A stretch of 40,988 bases of DNA from a virus. The stretch is from the UHGV virus genome UHGV-0200626; one strand, given 5' to 3'. The first letter of the stretch is position 1, and each line of letters begins with the position of its first letter. This document shows positions 3,544-9,488 of the stretch, piece after piece. Under the pieces are notes generated by a model. That model ran no database searches. It saw nothing but the letters and a program-made list of their open reading frames with translations, and was not told the origin of the DNA. The position numbers and the translations under genes were made by a program.

Positions 3544-3678
3544 CTATTTCATTGCGCATAACGCCTCCAGTTGTTTCTTTGCTGCTCTGATTAATTGTTT
3601 AACTCGGCGTGATAATTCAGATTCGTGCGGGTAGAAAGCGGACATGACGCCGCTACCCGCGAGCTGAAAGTGCATCAT
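3544..3678 (-). CDS. cIII: cIII-like protein (putative FtsH inhibitor)
   Basis: 44 aa from ATGATG at 3678 with AAGGAG upstream: MMHFQLAGSGVMSAFYPHESELSRRVKQLIRAAKKQLEALCAMK; resembles lambda CIII (MQYAIAGWPVAGCPSESLLERITRKLRDGWKR). The track's 79 aa form is an upstream in-frame extension. Confidence 0.55.
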   Translation of the reverse strand: MMHFQLAGSGVMSAFYPHESELSRRVKQLIRAAKKQLEALCAMK

Positions 3679-3742
3679 GGGTAACTCCTTATATTTGATT
3701 GCATAACGAAAACGCCTCGAGTGAAGCGTTATTGGTATGCAT

Positions 3743-3768
3743 ATAAAAAAGCCCTCACACTGGAGGGC
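3743..3768 (-). terminator. Intrinsic terminator inside the leftward early operon (tL-like)
   Basis: Minus strand reads GCCCTC-cagtgt-GAGGGC followed by TTTTTTAT; lies between the kil-position ORF and cIII. Confidence 0.55.
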
Positions 3769-3863
3769 AAAGAAGATTTCCAATAATCAGAACAAGTCGG
3801 CTCCTGTTTAGTTACGAGCAACATTGCTCCGTGTATTCACTCGTTGGAATGAATACACAGTGC

Positions 3864-4052
3864 TTATTCGTCATGCATTTCAGGTAATTCTTCGTATTCG
3901 ACTCCCCATACGAGTTTACACCAAGTGACTCGCTCATATCTTTTACAAAAATCAGACCACATAACTTGTGTTCCATCATGGTTTGTTATTACTTCTGTAA
4001 TATCACCAACACTAACAAAACTGGTATTAGAAGCAGTTATTTTTACTTTCAT
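3864..4052 (-). CDS. Hypothetical small early protein (kil-equivalent position)
   Basis: 62 aa ORF; TAATG stop/start overlap with the upstream gene. Confidence 0.4.
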   Translation of the reverse strand: MKVKITASNTSFVSVGDITEVITNHDGTQVMWSDFCKRYERVTWCKLVWGVEYEELPEMHDE

Positions 4053-4339
4053 TACTTATCCCCAAGAGCTTTTCTGATTGCTGCGATACCTTTATTAACA
4101 GCTCCATACCATTCTGGATATGTTGTCGTTGTTCTATTTTTGGATTGCTTAAGTAATAACTGAAGTGCTTCGAGAAGGTCAGGTGCTGCCGCTATCAGTA
4201 GCGCATCCTCCCTTTCATTTCTTGTTGCTGCTTCAATGTATGTGTCACCAATCGTCACACCATGGAACGTAGTCATCATCTCGTTGACGTTTCTAACCGT
4301 GTACTTCCATTTACCAGGCGTACCCTTAAACTCTTTCAT
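4052..4339 (-). CDS. Hypothetical early protein
   Basis: ORF with ATG at 4339 and GAGG 5 nt upstream (the track's 4345 start is a GTG two codons further up). Confidence 0.45.
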   Translation of the reverse strand: MKEFKGTPGKWKYTVRNVNEMMTTFHGVTIGDTYIEAATRNEREDALLIAAAPDLLEALQLLLKQSKNRTTTTYPEWYGAVNKGIAAIRKALGDK

Positions 4340-4370
4340 ATCCACCTCTGTTGTTTATGCCAAAGCAAAT

Positions 4371-4613
4371 TTAACCATCAACAAACTCTTCTGGTAATTT
4401 ATCAACCAGTTGATGACTTATTATCAGCCATTTGCCATCCTTCGTTTCGTATGCATATTTCTGGTCTTTTATCATCATGTGTTCGGCTACTGCCCTAACT
4501 GCCTGATCGGTGACATCTTCTCTCTTTCCTACCCACATTCCTTTTTCAGTGTTTAATGTTCCTTGAAAAATACGACCACTTAATGGGCTTGCGCCCATAG
4601 TTTTTACTCTCAT
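4371..4613 (-). CDS. Hypothetical early protein
   Basis: 80 aa ORF co-oriented in the PL-like operon. Confidence 0.45.
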   Translation of the reverse strand: MRVKTMGASPLSGRIFQGTLNTEKGMWVGKREDVTDQAVRAVAEHMMIKDQKYAYETKDGKWLIISHQLVDKLPEEFVDG

Positions 4614-5312: not shown

Positions 5313-6044
5313 TTAGTAATCAACTACAGACCACCAGAAAATTCTTCCGATGATCTCAATGTCACTTAGATTCTTTTCTTCTTGTGGGTATTCCAGTGAG
5401 TTAAAGCTTCTAATGCTTACCTTGTCAGGCCCTGTTCGAAAGAGAATCTTAATGCGTTTCCAACCGTTCTCGTTAATGGCGTAAATCTTTCCGTCAACTA
5501 TTTTCTTATCGTTGGTGTTAACAGCAACTGTTGTTCCATCAGGAATGTTTGGCTCCATGCTGTTGCCACGAGCCGGAAAACAAACAACCCCGCTTCCATC
5601 ACTGTTCGCGCCAACTCTGCGAAGGGTTGATTTGGAAAAGCGCAACATAAAGCCGTTGTGATCTTCATCAATCACCCGACCATCCCCGCATGCAAACTCA
5701 ATATCTTTAAGGTAAGGAATTTCAACTTCATCACCTCTTAAAGGCGTTCCTCCATCCCATGGGTCCAAACATCCCCACGTGCTTTCATGAGGAATAGAAG
5801 ATTTTGGATCATAAGGTTCAACTCCCTCATCACGCATTGGCCCAGTTCCATCGGAAAGCCATTCCGTACGAACTCCAAGCACTTTTGATATTTCAAAAAG
5901 TTTGCGCGTATTGCGTGTTTTTCCAGACGTAAGTTTCCAGACGCTTGGCTGAGACATGCCAACAGCATTGCCAAGAGAAGCCTGAGTAAACCCAGCCTGA
6001 TCCATCGCGTATGTAAGCCTTTGAGAAAAAGTATCTAGTTTCAT
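5313..6044 (-). CDS. cI: CI-like repressor (N-terminal HTH, C-terminal S24 LexA-like peptidase domain)
   Basis: 243 aa; HTH-like segment (GFTQASLGNAVGMSQPSVWKL), C-terminal GNSMEP serine motif and a downstream Lys typical of S24 autopeptidases; divergent from a cro-like gene. Confidence 0.8.
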   Translation of the reverse strand: MKLDTFSQRLTYAMDQAGFTQASLGNAVGMSQPSVWKLTSGKTRNTRKLFEISKVLGVRTEWLSDGTGPMRDEGVEPYDPKSSIPHESTWGCLDPWDGGTPLRGDEVEIPYLKDIEFACGDGRVIDEDHNGFMLRFSKSTLRRVGANSDGSGVVCFPARGNSMEPNIPDGTTVAVNTNDKKIVDGKIYAINENGWKRIKILFRTGPDKVSIRSFNSLEYPQEEKNLSDIEIIGRIFWWSVVDY

Positions 6045-6055
6045 TCGGACAACCT

Positions 6056-6112
6056 ATAGCTACAGCTATTATTAGTCAAATATCTAAAGCTATTTACTTT
6101 CTGAATAGCTTT
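6056..6112. promoter_or_regulatory. OR-like operator region between cI and cro
   Basis: ATAGCT-AC-AGCTAT (6056..6069) and AAAGCTATT-N9-AATAGCTTT (6086..6112) inverted repeats in the 108 bp divergent intergenic region. Confidence 0.5.
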
Positions 6113-6152
6113 GGCTATTATTCTTGTTGTGAATTCAGCAGGAGTTATTTTT

Positions 6153-6383
6153 ATGGTCAACAAGGCTATTAAAGCGGCTATTGACTCAGTAGGAAGTCAG
6201 CAAAAGTTAGCTGATGCCTGCGGTGTTAAGCAGCCGTCTGTATGGGCTTGGTTGCATGGGAAGAAAAGGGTATCCGCTAAAAATGCCAAGCGCATTGAAA
6301 TGGCTACCAATGGAAGCATCCCTGCATACCTGATTCGCCCTGATTTATCCGATTTGTTCCCCAATCCGAACAAAGCAGCTTAA
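6153..6383 (+). CDS. cro: Cro-like HTH regulator
   Basis: 76 aa from ATG 6153 with AGGAG upstream; HTH-like segment QQKLADACGVKQPSVWAWLHGKK; divergent from cI. Confidence 0.6.
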   Translation: MVNKAIKAAIDSVGSQQKLADACGVKQPSVWAWLHGKKRVSAKNAKRIEMATNGSIPAYLIRPDLSDLFPNPNKAA

Positions 6384-6502
6384 TAAAGCAAATTTTTATA
6401 CCGAACGGCCCGGTATACGGTCGGGTGCCCGGCGTGGTCAAGGATGACTGTCAATGGTGCACGATAAAAACCCAAATTATTTACCTATGGAGATAGTAAG
6501 AA

Positions 6503-6799
6503 ATGACACAAACAAGTTACAGCAAGCCAACACAGCGAGAAATTGATCGCGCTGAAACTGATTTACTCATCAACCTGTCAACGCTTACCCAGCGCGGTTT
6601 GGCAAAGATGATTGGCTGTCATGAATCGAAGATAAGCAGAACGGACTGGAGATTTATTGCTTCGGTCTTGTGTGCTTTCGGAATGGCATCAGACATCAGT
6701 CCGATTAGCAGGGCTTTTAAGTATGCATTGGATGGAATCACAAAGAAAAAATCCCCGGCTGCCACCGAGGATTCTGAGCAAATTGATATGCAATTCTGA
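6503..6799 (+). CDS. cII: CII transcriptional activator
   Basis: 98 aa; C-terminus KKKSPAATEDSEQIDMQF matches lambda CII KKRPAATERSEQIQMEF; correct position after cro. Confidence 0.8.
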   Translation: MTQTSYSKPTQREIDRAETDLLINLSTLTQRGLAKMIGCHESKISRTDWRFIASVLCAFGMASDISPISRAFKYALDGITKKKSPAATEDSEQIDMQF

Positions 6800-6831
6800 G
6801 GGAATTACTGGATCAATCCACAGGAGTAATT

Positions 6832-7476
6832 ATGACATACGAAAATGACAAATTCCAGGTTCTGAAGAGCATGAAGGTGCCAGATGATTTTAAATCAAAT
6901 GGCTTTGTTTATGTGCTTTCTAATGAGTGCATGCCAGGAATTTATAAGATTGGGATGACTAAGCATTCACCAGAAGTTAGGGCTAAAGAAATTTCAGCCT
7001 CTACTGGCGTTCCTAAGCCATTTAAGGTGATAGCAGCCTTTCATTCAAATAATCCCGCATCAGATGAAAAACTCATTCATAAAGCCTTTGCAAAAGAGAG
7101 GCTTAGTGATAATCGAGAGTTTTTCAAGCTTGAAGATAATGAGCTTTCTGAATCTCTAAATGAAATAAGGGCGCTGGTTGGCCCTGAAAGAAATGGCGAG
7201 ACGGCAGAATACGCAATTTACGACTCATTCATTTCTTTTCGCCATGAAAATGAGCTTGATCTTAATGAGGAGCTTATAGAGCAAGGTCTGGGTAGTGTAG
7301 TTGGTCATCTTCCTGCGGTGAAAAATTTCCTTATTCGCGCCGGAATTGATTACGCGAAGCAACTGATAAGCAAATATAACTCATCGATAGTTATTAATAC
7401 AGATGGCAGTGTGGTGATGGTTAAGTCTCTTGAAGCCCAATGCTTTGATGCGGAGGTTGGAAATGAGCCTGGCTGA
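6832..7476 (+). CDS. T5orf172 (GIY-YIG-like) domain protein, accessory gene
   Basis: 214 aa; N-terminal GFVYVLSN...GIYKIGMTKHSPEVRAKEIS...PFKV...EKLIHKAFAKERL...REFFKL fits the T5orf172 pattern recalled from memory; AGGAG 5 nt upstream of ATG; inserted between cII and O. Confidence 0.55.
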   Translation: MTYENDKFQVLKSMKVPDDFKSNGFVYVLSNECMPGIYKIGMTKHSPEVRAKEISASTGVPKPFKVIAAFHSNNPASDEKLIHKAFAKERLSDNREFFKLEDNELSESLNEIRALVGPERNGETAEYAIYDSFISFRHENELDLNEELIEQGLGSVVGHLPAVKNFLIRAGIDYAKQLISKYNSSIVINTDGSVVMVKSLEAQCFDAEVGNEPG

Positions 7477-8305
7477 AGTATTTTACCTGTCGAAGAGTGA
7501 ACCTGTTGAACAGGAGCGAAGAGTGGCTGATATCGATGATGGTTACACCAGATTCGCTAACGAGCTGCTGGAAGCTATCGCAAGTGCTGATTTAACCGCT
7601 CGCCAGTTGAAAGTTATGCTGGCCTACGTCCGGAAAACATATGGATTCAATAAGAAAACAGATCGAATAGCCGATGAGCAAATTGCTCAGTTAACAGGAC
7701 TGTCAAGGCAGAATGTTAACAAGGCTAAAAAAGAACTGATTTCAATGAATTGCCTGTTTATGGATGGAAATCAAATCGGTGTAAACAGTGAGGTATCTGC
7801 GTGGCAATTCAGCAAGTGTCTCCAAGTTAGCAACTTTGTCTCGAAGTTAGAGACAAAAAATGTCTCCAAATTAGAGACACTCAATGTCTCGAAGTTAGAG
7901 ACACACAAAAGACATTCTTTAAAGACAAAAGAAAATATTAATAAACCCCCTATATCCCCCAAAAAAGTTTCTCAGAAGTTCGACCCGCTAGAAACAGAGT
8001 TGCCTGATTGGTTATCAGCAGAAACATGGTTGTCGTGGGTTACCTATCGCAAGGAGATAGGTAAGTCGATCAAGTCTAAGCAAAGTGTCACTCAGGCTAT
8101 CAACGTTCTAAGCAGAAGTCTGGAGAAGGGATATACACCTGAAGAAATTATAAACCAGAGCATCGCCAGTGGTTGGCAGGGGATTTTTGAACCCAAGACT
8201 CCAAAGGGGAAATCTCAACCGAGGCCGCAGCAGCGAGCTATGCAGGAAAACTTTGCCGCCAAAGATTACGGGCAAACTGAAATGCCTTCATGGGCGCAGG
8301 AGTGA
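7463..8305 (+). CDS. O: Replication initiator, lambda O-like
   Basis: N-terminal region (RRVADIDDGYTRFANELLEAIASADLTARQLKVMLAYVRKTYGFNKKTDRIAD) parallels lambda O; GGAGGT upstream of ATG 7463; contains iterons. Confidence 0.8.
   Translation: MSLAEVFYLSKSEPVEQERRVADIDDGYTRFANELLEAIASADLTARQLKVMLAYVRKTYGFNKKTDRIADEQIAQLTGLSRQNVNKAKKELISMNCLFMDGNQIGVNSEVSAWQFSKCLQVSNFVSKLETKNVSKLETLNVSKLETHKRHSLKTKENINKPPISPKKVSQKFDPLETELPDWLSAETWLSWVTYRKEIGKSIKSKQSVTQAINVLSRSLEKGYTPEEIINQSIASGWQGIFEPKTPKGKSQPRPQQRAMQENFAAKDYGQTEMPSWAQE
7817..7903. repeat. Origin iterons inside the O gene
   Basis: Three 19 bp inverted-repeat units (7837..7855, 7861..7879, 7885..7903) plus a degenerate copy at 7817..7835, followed by an AT-rich stretch to about 7975; they encode the repeated peptide VSKLET. 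Confidence 0.65.
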
Positions 8306-8307
8306 AT

Positions 8308-9201
8308 ATGAATACGACAAATGGTTACAATCTGGCACTGCAAAGGCAACTTGTAGACTCAAAAATCAATGACATTTCTGATCTGAAACAGAAACTTGAG
8401 TTTAGCAAAATTGGATCAGCATCAGATGGAATGTCAGTTACCAGCACAGTGGAAGAGTGCGAGAAACACGGTAAATATACTTCCTATGAGAAATATCTGA
8501 CCATCTCAGGAAAAAGAATTACTTCAAGTAAATCTGAGTGCCCACAGTGCCTTGAGGAGAAAATTCGTAAGAAAGAGATTGAACGTGAGCAGGCAGAACA
8601 AAGAGCAAGACAATCAAAAATTGAATATTTGTTGAATTCTCTCAATATTCCAGAGAGGTTCAAAAATTGCACTCTTCAGAATTATGAGCCTGTTAACGAT
8701 GATGCAAAGCGAGTTCTTAAGGTATGCCAGGCATATGCCAGTAAGTGGCCTGAACGCCTTCAGAAAGGTGGCGGACTGGTCATGTGTGGTAAGCCTGGAA
8801 CTGGAAAGAACCACCTTGCACTGGCTATCGCTAGGCACGCCATTATCGAGCATCAAAGCTCTGTGATATTTACCACTGCGTTGAAAATTGCCAGAGAGTA
8901 CAAATCAACATGGTCTAAGGCCGCAACCAGAACTGAAGAAGAAGTCATTAGGCAATTTACGCATCCTGACTTGTTAATAATCGATGAGGTTGGCGTGCAG
9001 TTCGGCAGTGATGCTGAAAAGCTAATCATGTTCGAAATTATCAACACCAGATATGAATACATGAAGCCAACAATCCTGATTAGTAATCAGAGCAAAGATG
9101 AACTTTCGGCATTCATTGGTGAGCGTGTTATTGACAGGATGAATGATGGCGGAGGGTGCACTCTTGCGTTTACATGGGATAGTTACAGGAGCAGATCGTG
9201 A
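8308..9201 (+). CDS. DnaC/IstB-like AAA+ helicase loader
   Basis: Walker A GKPGTGKNHLALAI and Walker B LLIIDEVG; ATG 8308 follows CAGGAG and overlaps the O stop. Confidence 0.8.
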   Translation: MNTTNGYNLALQRQLVDSKINDISDLKQKLEFSKIGSASDGMSVTSTVEECEKHGKYTSYEKYLTISGKRITSSKSECPQCLEEKIRKKEIEREQAEQRARQSKIEYLLNSLNIPERFKNCTLQNYEPVNDDAKRVLKVCQAYASKWPERLQKGGGLVMCGKPGTGKNHLALAIARHAIIEHQSSVIFTTALKIAREYKSTWSKAATRTEEEVIRQFTHPDLLIIDEVGVQFGSDAEKLIMFEIINTRYEYMKPTILISNQSKDELSAFIGERVIDRMNDGGGCTLAFTWDSYRSRS

Positions 9202-9488
9202 CTGGAAAAGAAATCATCCTGGAATATCTGAAAACTCATGAACAATTCTCCCCACATGAATTAGCACTGATTACCGGAATACCAAATAACAGAATCGCTC
9301 AAGCAGCAAGGCATATGGTGAAACAAGGGCATTTGAGTGTTGTTGAGCGTAAGTGGAAGACGGTTATTTATGCGAAACGCAAAGTGAAGAAGGAGCCAAT
9401 TAAAAGAAATCCAGATGGTACGGGGTGGGTATGTGCAAATCCAATGACGGCGTTTATTAATAGGGCGCTTATGGAGGTAAGGCAATGA
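9198..9488 (+). CDS. ren: Ren-like protein
   Basis: 96 aa; N-terminus MTGKEIILEYLKTHEQF...ITGIPNNRIAQAARHM resembles lambda Ren (MTGKEAIIHYLGTHNSF...) from memory; same position after the replication genes. Confidence 0.45.
   Translation: MTGKEIILEYLKTHEQFSPHELALITGIPNNRIAQAARHMVKQGHLSVVERKWKTVIYAKRKVKKEPIKRNPDGTGWVCANPMTAFINRALMEVRQ

Follow-up and report, generated by a model that had tools for sequence, protein, structure and literature searches.

The nuclease gene and its product

The stretch of DNA analyzed here, in the following called the window, comprises 40,988 nucleotides of the viral genome UHGV-0200626. Between cII and the gene for an O-like replication initiator it carries a gene for a GIY-YIG nuclease of the T5orf172 type (Table 1). 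That this gene is intact and under selection is firmly supported. The window stems from a temperate coliphage. Overall similarity marks it as a mosaic of P22-like/lambdoid type with E212, Kapi1, Louie and mEpX1 as the nearest phages, and its early-right operon from the repressor to the Ren-like gene has the classical lambdoid layout. The nuclease gene is 100% identical to Bas106_0049 of phage CurroJimenez_Bas106 (PQ850599; Bas106 in the following), where it is annotated as hypothetical, while RefSeq lists it as “GIY-YIG nuclease family protein”.

Table 1. Features of the nuclease locus in the window (aa, amino acids; SD, Shine-Dalgarno sequence; pI, isoelectric point; E, E-value).
Feature	Position	Strand	Details
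T5orf172/GIY-YIG nuclease gene	6832..7476	+	ATG 6832, TGA 7474-7476, open reading frame of 214 aa
Nuclease domain T5orf172/MUG113, GIY-YIG fold	6901..7167	+	aa 24-112
Orphan acidic C-terminal domain	7168..7473	+	aa 113-214, net charge -8, pI 4.6
Cassette of 670 bp (42 bp in mEpX1-type phages)	6838..7507	+	three-way alignment of window, mEpX1 and Bas106
Conserved linker with SD and ATGACA, left recombination joint	6807..6837	+	SD AGGAG at 6822-6826
Cassette-borne SD, ATG and first 15 codons of O	7452..7507	+	GGAGG 7452-7456, ATG 7463, MSLAEVFYLSKSEPV
cII, left neighbor	6503..6799	+	Pfam Phage_CII E 6.1e-34; phrog_191
O-like replication initiator, right neighbor	7463..8305	+	Pfam Phage_rep_O E 3.7e-36; phrog_678
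S24/LexA-type repressor	5313-6044	-	
Cro-like gene	6111-6383	+	
DnaC-like loader	8290-9201		
Ren-like gene	9198-9488		name from the equivalent gene in Bas106 and mEpX1
Iteron array inside O	7837..7908		24-bp period, 3 copies, Tandem Repeats Finder score 109

The original prediction, made from the sequence alone, had assigned a T5orf172 signature to the N-terminal half of the protein. Profile searches bear this out: Pfam T5orf172 (PF10544) matches aa 24-112 with E 1.4e-15 and 58 bits (cut-off 20), and MUG113 (PF13455) matches aa 38-111 with E 7.1e-16 and 59 bits (cut-off 22.3), while NCBIfam gave no match for the protein. The GIY-YIG fold is present in an AlphaFold2 model (pLDDT 87, pTM 0.71), and a Foldseek search against the viral structure models of BFVD retrieved T5orf172 proteins at E 2.5e-9, with the alignment confined to about 95 residues. 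Among 89 unique relatives the residues Y27, K39, G41, R50, E79, E96 and F98 are invariant; H83 is found in 87 and Y38 in 79 of them. The order of secondary structure elements is beta1 (GIY-like FVY), beta2 (YKIG), a helix with R50, beta3 and a helix with E79. From this order and from profile coordinates, E79 would be the counterpart of I-TevI E75, SNIPE E414 and Odn E180. The T5orf172-type domain of Odn is an active nuclease, and exchange E180A abolishes its cleavage (PMC8263062). Likewise E414A abolishes both defense and toxicity of SNIPE/PD-lambda-1 (PMC13190303), and the window domain matches the nuclease region of the PADLOC PD-Lambda-1 profiles. Judged from its residues and its modeled fold, the protein is probably an active, metal-dependent DNA endonuclease.

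The T5orf172 domain was originally, in 2002, reportedly viewed as DNA-binding or regulatory. Many of the BFVD matches still carry the UniProt name “Bacteriophage T5 Orf172 DNA-binding”, and PLE CapR, which is related to T5orf172 homing genes, acts as a repressor. A catalytically silent protein with a DNA-binding or regulatory role is nevertheless very improbable in our case, given the GIY-YIG catalytic positions invariant across the 89 relatives, an acidic protein and related domains that are proven nucleases.

For the C-terminal half, in which no recognizable feature had been seen, profiling confirmed an orphan domain in all libraries searched. Residues 113-214 gave no Pfam match even at E≤10, no sequence match in the PDB (using a profile of 21 sequences) and no match among the BFVD models. 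When the profile was searched against 1.84 billion representative proteins just 13 matches were obtained, all of them the C-terminal part of proteins of 215-245 aa or truncated gene calls. Short proteins matching this domain alone were read as such truncated calls and not as stand-alone domains. We also considered whether this half is a copy of the DNA-binding domain of O, as in Odn, and rejected this (hhalign against the O alignment, probability 0.06%). The whole protein has a pI of 5.1, and its acidity is kept across the family. Both halves are under purifying selection: compared with an 84%-identical homologue (L003), at a dS of about 1, the nuclease half has a ratio of nonsynonymous to synonymous substitution rates (dN/dS) of 0.094 and the C-terminal half one of 0.083. 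Residues 113-214 thus are a real, family-specific orphan domain without the look of a DNA reader.

As predicted, the gene lies on the early rightward transcript, on the same strand and in the same operon as cro, cII and O, and overlaps the start of O. In the Bas106 annotation O starts at ATG 7463, preceded by GGAGG, which gives an overlap of 14 nt; an alternative start at TTG 7430 would extend it to 47 nt. The ATG is most likely the true start. The strong SD that had been ascribed to the nuclease gene is present as AGGAG 5 nt ahead of its ATG, but it is not its own: in phages that lack the gene, this linker with its SD is what drives O. Promoter-like sites numbered 3 versus 5.1 expected, none of them placed upstream of the nuclease gene, and no plus-strand terminator was found between cII and O. 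A promoter or terminator belonging to the gene itself was therefore rejected, there being no signal above background. Expression together with cII and O from the early rightward operon is firmly supported, and lacking separate signals the gene should be silent in the lysogen.

Rfam returned no structured RNA match at E≤0.1 in 5900-8400. The intergenic region between cro and cII (6394-6502, especially around 6407-6463) is 97–98% identical to HK022, HK75 and O276, in which the corresponding site carries an annotated antiterminator RNA, putR; Rfam contains no family that matches it. This identity to put-bearing phages suggests that the operon with the nuclease gene is probably under HK022-type put-RNA antitermination.

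The place in a repressed pR operon with fewer promoter-like sites than expected also bears on a possible anti-phage defense expressed in the lysogen, similar to PD-lambda-1/SNIPE or the PADLOC candidate PDC-S57. PADLOC matches the protein to PDC-S57 with E 4.5e-29 and to PD-Lambda-1 with E 4e-12, and PDC-S57 is of similar size (profiles of 212–245 positions). These matches are, however, confined to the nuclease domain. Residues 21-113 align to positions 3-94 of 212 in PDC-S57, whose C-terminal half is not matched, or to 354-450 of 491-496 in PD-Lambda-1, where again the nuclease region alone aligns; Pfam detects no DUF4041, and no transmembrane prediction was made. Furthermore the gene is not found among defense genes, and it sits in the replication module rather than in a defense island or moron slot. 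We therefore give such a defense role very little credence.

The cassette and its slot

The gene had been proposed to be inserted between cII and O. Two phages delimit the insertion: mEpX1, whose cII, O and DnaC-like genes are 99% identical to the window and which has no nuclease gene, and Bas106, which has the identical nuclease gene behind a different cII. Identity between the window and mEpX1 covers the linker, the SD and ATGACA up to 6837, is gone at 6838-7507 and is back at GAACAGGAGCG, i.e. at window position 7508 and around codon 16–17 of O. The linker is near-identical in mEpX1, where it lies ahead of O, and in Bas106 from about 6809, and the matches of HK97, HK022 and the Stx phages all stop at 6837. 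The shared linker and SD drives O in mEpX1 and the nuclease gene in the window. The right end of the cassette reaches into O, which begins with MSLAEVFYLSKSEPV in the window and with the lambda-type MTNTAKILNFGRGNFA in mEpX1; the two N-termini look like diverged homologues. Since the 84%-identical homologue is accompanied by a matching O N-terminal variant (MSLAEVYYLQKNEPVK), the 5’ end of O travels with the nuclease gene. Filled and empty alleles differ over 42 bp at the junction, and the replaced lambda-type 5’ end of O has at least 120 exact 27-mer matches in IMG/VR. With a GC content of 40.5% and 35% at third codon positions (GC3) the nuclease gene lies below its flanks (43–45%, GC3 46%). 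That the cassette is an optional part of the replication module is firmly supported.

We surveyed 5426 complete E. coli genomes for the cassette. The nuclease gene is present in 19, each time followed by the same O allele. This O allele is, however, not always accompanied by the gene: next to the 19 filled copies at least 27 are empty, so that the two are not universally conserved together. At least 16 prophages have the same cII and O (96–99% identity) and an mEpX1-type empty junction with the 42 bp instead; these 16 sites span 1167–1178 bp compared to 1803 bp in the window. In one of them (H109) the two-piece match spans 1175 bp, exactly 1803 - 670 + 42. In at least 11 further E. coli the O allele matches solely from window position 7508 (query position 1006). 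Three kinds of left context occur among the 19 filled sites: 4 have the cII of the window, 4 a different cII that agrees with it at the 3’ end, and 11 share no more than the linker of about 25 bp. In 11 of the 19 sites homology begins at query position 305, which corresponds to window position 6807. Across all three contexts the cassette is 98.8–100% identical. In IMG/VR the E. coli-type nuclease gene accompanies 17 occurrences of the same O allele and is missing from 5 (mEpX1 and four IMG/VR contigs).

To the right, the O allele is joined to two alleles of the DnaC-like loader, and all four combinations of filled or empty site with either loader exist. Within O, single nucleotide polymorphisms (SNPs) at the 5’ end go together with the cassette, those at the 3’ end follow the loader allele, and mEpX1 has an empty site yet a filled-like O 5’ haplotype. 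The 5’ linkage is compatible with co-conversion, but physical linkage by itself would also produce it.

The nuclease gene is complete in each of its 19 E. coli copies. Among the 18 IMG/VR copies of this E. coli allele 17 are complete as well, and the remaining one (L053) is cut by the contig end. In contig L011 (ENA ERZ1714338 contig_1816, 3621-4609) the gene is split into a 73-aa N-terminal piece and a C-terminal piece read into O. We considered the latter product (P0032, 202 aa) as a fusion of the nuclease C-terminus to O or as a decayed copy and rejected both: the contig is full of fragmented genes, including a split repressor, and the break is more likely an assembly or sequencing artefact. 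In two E. coli genomes (H125 and H126; NZ_CP025881.1, NZ_CP025869.1) an IS2 element has inserted into the O allele of the window.

Beyond this allele, full-length homologues of 52–84% identity occur in E. coli, Klebsiella, Pantoea, Cronobacter and Pectobacterium, and a sister subfamily of 230–250 aa shares 33–46% identity. We collected 113 loci of relatives, with neighbors called by script. In about 110 of them the gene lies directly upstream of a replication initiator, in most with a gap of -4 to +12 nt, and all inspected contexts place it between a cII- or YdaT-type regulator and the initiator. Among 43 representatives the downstream protein is Phage_rep_O (17), HTH_36 (6), DnaT (2), DUF1376 (1) or DnaD_N (1). 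The abundant downstream type “MARSRNIKPGFF” (“MARSRN”) is a PHROG replication-initiation protein, and most of the other types tested match O-like or DnaD-like PHROG families. Upstream proteins are CII in 27 and YdaT in 5 of 45 cases. More distant relatives, whose similarity is limited to the nuclease domain (40–50% identity), fill this slot in the phages S107 (Salmonella), Brookers (Proteus) and KL4 (Burkholderia), and also in Paraburkholderia, Azotobacter and Pseudomonas prophages. The copies in Burkholderia, Paraburkholderia and Azotobacter are nuclease-only proteins of 125–146 aa. The slot is thus kept from Enterobacterales to Burkholderiales, beside initiators of several unrelated families. 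In the literature we found no paper on this nuclease family, on a nuclease in the cII-O slot, or on PDC-S57; the one paper that came up, on an Arthrobacter phage, is unrelated.

The original prediction built on lambda and P22, in which cII is followed directly by the initiator. Relative to its close relatives of the mEpX1 type the gene is indeed a true insertion. In lambdoid phages at large the slot is not always empty, and others fill it with small unrelated proteins, namely HK97 gp53, HK022 orf48 (VT2-Sakai H0097) and DUF2740 proteins, which makes it a known variable joint. In S107 (L014, 3356-4097) a 48-aa ORF and a 200-aa T5orf172 gene with a different C-terminal half both lie between cII and the initiator, indicating that the slot can hold two occupants. 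This 48-aa ORF has the size of HK022 orf48.

The sister subfamily has a conserved end G[IV]YGPxxPxx[FY]-COOH, in many members ...GIYGPEQPVEF. Other members carry acidic tips (L021, L022, L075 and L076 with ...PPVDEPIPF or ...AEDPIPF; P0031, P0035 and P0040 with ...DFDDAPF, ...DDSDIPF and ...DFDDNPF). The D(E/D)xIPF tips resemble the C-terminal tip of the E. coli single-stranded DNA-binding protein (SSB), a likeness that would suggest docking of the sister subfamily onto SSB-interacting proteins. The window protein ends in ...DAEVGNEPG, without the tail motif. The window subfamily pairs with several divergent Phage_rep_O proteins, the sister subfamily mostly with “MARSRN” and also with HTH_36 and O-like initiators. 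A co-variation of C-terminal subfamily and initiator was considered and dropped, as the correlation is not strict and is inseparable from physical linkage.

A further profile, phrog_8130 (434 positions), matches T5orf172 at positions 181-257 and the N-terminus of a “MARSRNIKPGFF” initiator (L009:4694-5554) at 11-102. This double match implies phage fusions of an initiator-type N-terminal domain with a T5orf172 nuclease, similar to Odn.

Possible roles of the nuclease

We tentatively favor a free-standing nuclease that resembles homing endonucleases or serves in competition between phages and is expressed early, a reading we consider plausible while holding it at somewhat less than even confidence. 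What the analysis shows are the domain and its fold, the intact catalytic residues, purifying selection, the exact indel, the reassortment with the flanks and the place in the operon; that the enzyme is active, what it cuts, that it homes and what its C-terminal domain does are inferences. The nuclease shares its transcript from the early rightward promoter with cro, cII and O, and would therefore be made upon infection or induction and not in the lysogen. Its translation uses the SD that belongs to O where the cassette is missing. The cassette in turn provides O with a replacement SD, start codon and 15 N-terminal codons, and the nuclease gene is translationally coupled to O. The enzyme may then cut the DNA of a co-resident related phage or prophage without the cassette. 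The best candidate target would be the highly conserved lambda-type sequence that the cassette replaces, at the junction of cII with O and at the beginning of O. If the break were repaired by recombination with the genome that carries the cassette, via the left linker and the right O segment, the cassette would be copied in. As there is no DNA-reading domain and the protein is acidic, targeting would probably be achieved by the orphan C-terminal domain through protein contacts and not by direct sequence recognition.

This homing-like or competition reading draws on the reputation of the family, on the exact presence/absence pattern, on the position beside an essential gene and on the replaced conserved 42 bp. 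T5orf172 genes of phages are regarded as homing endonuclease genes that neighbor essential genes and mark the boundaries of recombination (PMC10448857). As expected of a homing gene, the cassette is present or absent at a single exact site in genomes that are otherwise nearly identical, and the GC3 of the gene is lower than that of its flanks. The cassette has been reassorted with its flanks, occurring in three left contexts and with both loader alleles. The 42-bp sequence it replaces is very conserved and differs from the allele of the carrier, making it a candidate target.

Several observations weigh against this reading. The main caveat is the acidity of the protein combined with the lack of any detectable DNA-binding module, which a classical homing endonuclease should have; 87% of the described T5orf172 homing genes have Zn-finger domains, which are absent here, and homing has never been shown experimentally for any T5orf172 gene (PMC10448857). 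The population evidence is equally expected from ordinary exchange of lambdoid modules, and ORFs that do not encode nucleases (HK97 gp53, HK022 orf48) occupy the same slot. Relatives down to 33–50% identity keep the slot beside unrelated initiators, which a sequence-specific homing enzyme would not readily do. Finally, the cycle of gain, decay and loss expected of homing genes is not observed: apart from the two incomplete contigs mentioned above (L011 and L053) no frameshifted copies occur among those from E. coli and IMG/VR, dN/dS is about 0.09 in both halves, and 18 of the 19 genomes contain one copy.

A comparison with the putative homing genes of ICP1 type shows the same mixture. They share with the window gene the Pfam domain, the free-standing position by an essential gene at an exchange boundary and the variability between close phages (Barth, Dunham & Seed 2023, PMC10448857). 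In contrast, they pair the nuclease with a Zn-finger (CapR, DUF723, DUF4397) or other DNA-binding domain where the window protein has an acidic orphan domain, and they are often present in multiple, frequently decayed copies per genome where the window has one intact, strongly selected copy. Unlike them, the window family keeps one slot upstream of the initiator in temperate phages. The T4 Seg proteins and I-TevI have the same arrangement as the window gene, an N-terminal nuclease with a C-terminal module and an intergenic insertion that overlaps the neighbor. They are, however, basic proteins with defined DNA-binding modules whose homing was shown experimentally.

The constant company of initiators could instead mark an accessory nuclease of the replication module, which we rate as possible but on the unlikely side. 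In this case the C-terminal domain would dock on the initiator, the loader or proteins of the replisome or SSB interactome, and the enzyme would cut or nick at origins or forks, either in the phage’s own replication (e.g. in the transition from theta to rolling-circle mode) or in order to break forks of the host or of rivals. The module would then contain the gene as a working though dispensable part, rather than as a selfish element. Consistent with this are the roughly 110 loci immediately upstream of initiators of many families, from E. coli to Burkholderia, Paraburkholderia and Pseudomonas, as well as the absence of decayed copies. A conserved acidic C-terminal domain under purifying selection is as expected of a protein-binding module, and the sister subfamily has the SSB-tip-like tails, which the window subfamily lacks. 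In structure the protein comes closest to nucleases of the SLX1 type, which are structure-specific and depend on a partner subunit; sequence identity to SLX1/HIGLE is 12–13%, and these are eukaryotic proteins with a RING or PHD-type second domain. On the other hand the gene is dispensable for the same O allele, at least 27 of about 46 E. coli copies being without it; mEpX1 is viable, and lambda and P22 replicate without this gene. Moreover, lambdoid gene order is conserved anyway, which may account for its position, and phage genes are generally packed tightly.

In a broader form, the relatives from Enterobacterales to Burkholderiales might constitute a so far unrecognized class of protein-guided T5orf172 nucleases in the replication modules of temperate phages, coupled to unrelated initiators, an idea that we consider rather doubtful. 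The C-terminal domain, lengthened in the sister subfamily by the SSB-tip-like tail, would bring the nuclease to complexes at the initiator, origin or replisome. With equal reserve we combine it with the proposal that such enzymes would cut origins and forks of rivals or hosts in the manner of Odn, or nick the phage’s own DNA for the switch from theta to rolling-circle replication.

The example of SNIPE/PD-lambda-1 shows how a domain homologous to the window nuclease can be targeted: its nuclease is non-specific, and accessory protein-binding domains provide the specificity (PMC13190303), a logic that we propose for the C-terminal domain of the window protein. SNIPE itself serves in bacterial defense and has a length of about 490 aa, which includes DUF4041 and a transmembrane domain, in contrast to the early replication-module gene of a phage considered here.

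Odn of ICP1 offers another parallel, as a T5orf172 nuclease with ties to an initiator and origin that mobile elements employ against each other (Barth et al. 2021, PMC8263062). A counter-defense or anti-parasite nuclease of similar purpose, directed at a satellite such as a phage-inducible chromosomal island (PICI) or a P4-like element, at a plasmid or at host defense nucleic acid, seems quite unlikely to us. T5orf172 nucleases have been domesticated in this way (Odn and ICP1 gp5), initiator-nuclease fusions among phages are implied by phrog_8130, and the gene is optional, early and strongly selected. However, the link to the initiator is one of gene adjacency and not of fusion. The C-terminal domain is unlike O or any initiator DNA-binding domain (hhalign 0.06% versus O; neither RepA_N nor Phage_rep_O found in the protein by Pfam), no candidate target element was identified, and the constant position by the phage’s own initiator would be left unexplained.

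The nuclease type as such is already known, and one more phage T5orf172 gene will not surprise a specialist. A modest experimental follow-up is merited by the orphan domain that stands in place of a DNA-binding module, by the slot upstream of the initiator, conserved across phyla, and by the matched phages. If active and targeted through proteins, the enzyme would offer a simple and testable example of how a phage nuclease can become specific although it lacks a domain for reading DNA; on the bacterial side SNIPE has recently shown such protein-targeted specificity. If it is a homing enzyme, homing-driven mosaicism would extend to the classic cII/O boundary of lambdoid phages, and one of the recombination joints most familiar from phage genomics would have a mechanistic explanation. 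Should it act together with the initiator or replisome, it would be relevant to the handling of origins, forks and competitors by lambdoid phages in early infection. The question is tractable, as Bas106 is an isolated phage with the identical gene and mEpX1 a natural cassette-free counterpart with 99% identical flanks.

Neighboring features of the replication module

On the left of the cassette, the cII DNA is 98% identical to cII of HK022 and HK75. On its right, the iteron array within O lies about 360 bp downstream of the nuclease gene and encodes the repeated peptide NVSKLET. In VT2-Sakai ori iterons are annotated at the equivalent place of the O gene, and the array in the window is presumed to be the origin.

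The last approximately 30 residues of O (window 8246-8302, aa 262-291, ...ENFAAKDYGQTEMPSWAQE) match the end of the “MARSRN” initiators (phrog_17247). One of these (L008:4727-5620) ends in ...ENFATKNYGTTEIPEWARD, although this family is otherwise unrelated to O. The tail common to both initiator types is possibly a contact to the helicase loader. When comparing the loader gene itself (window 8306-9201) to L038, L040 and others, we noticed that the two loader alleles are similar (about 82%) just over the last 570 bp or so. The switch between them occurs right at the boundary of O and the loader, at about window position 8311, and constitutes another sharp module joint.

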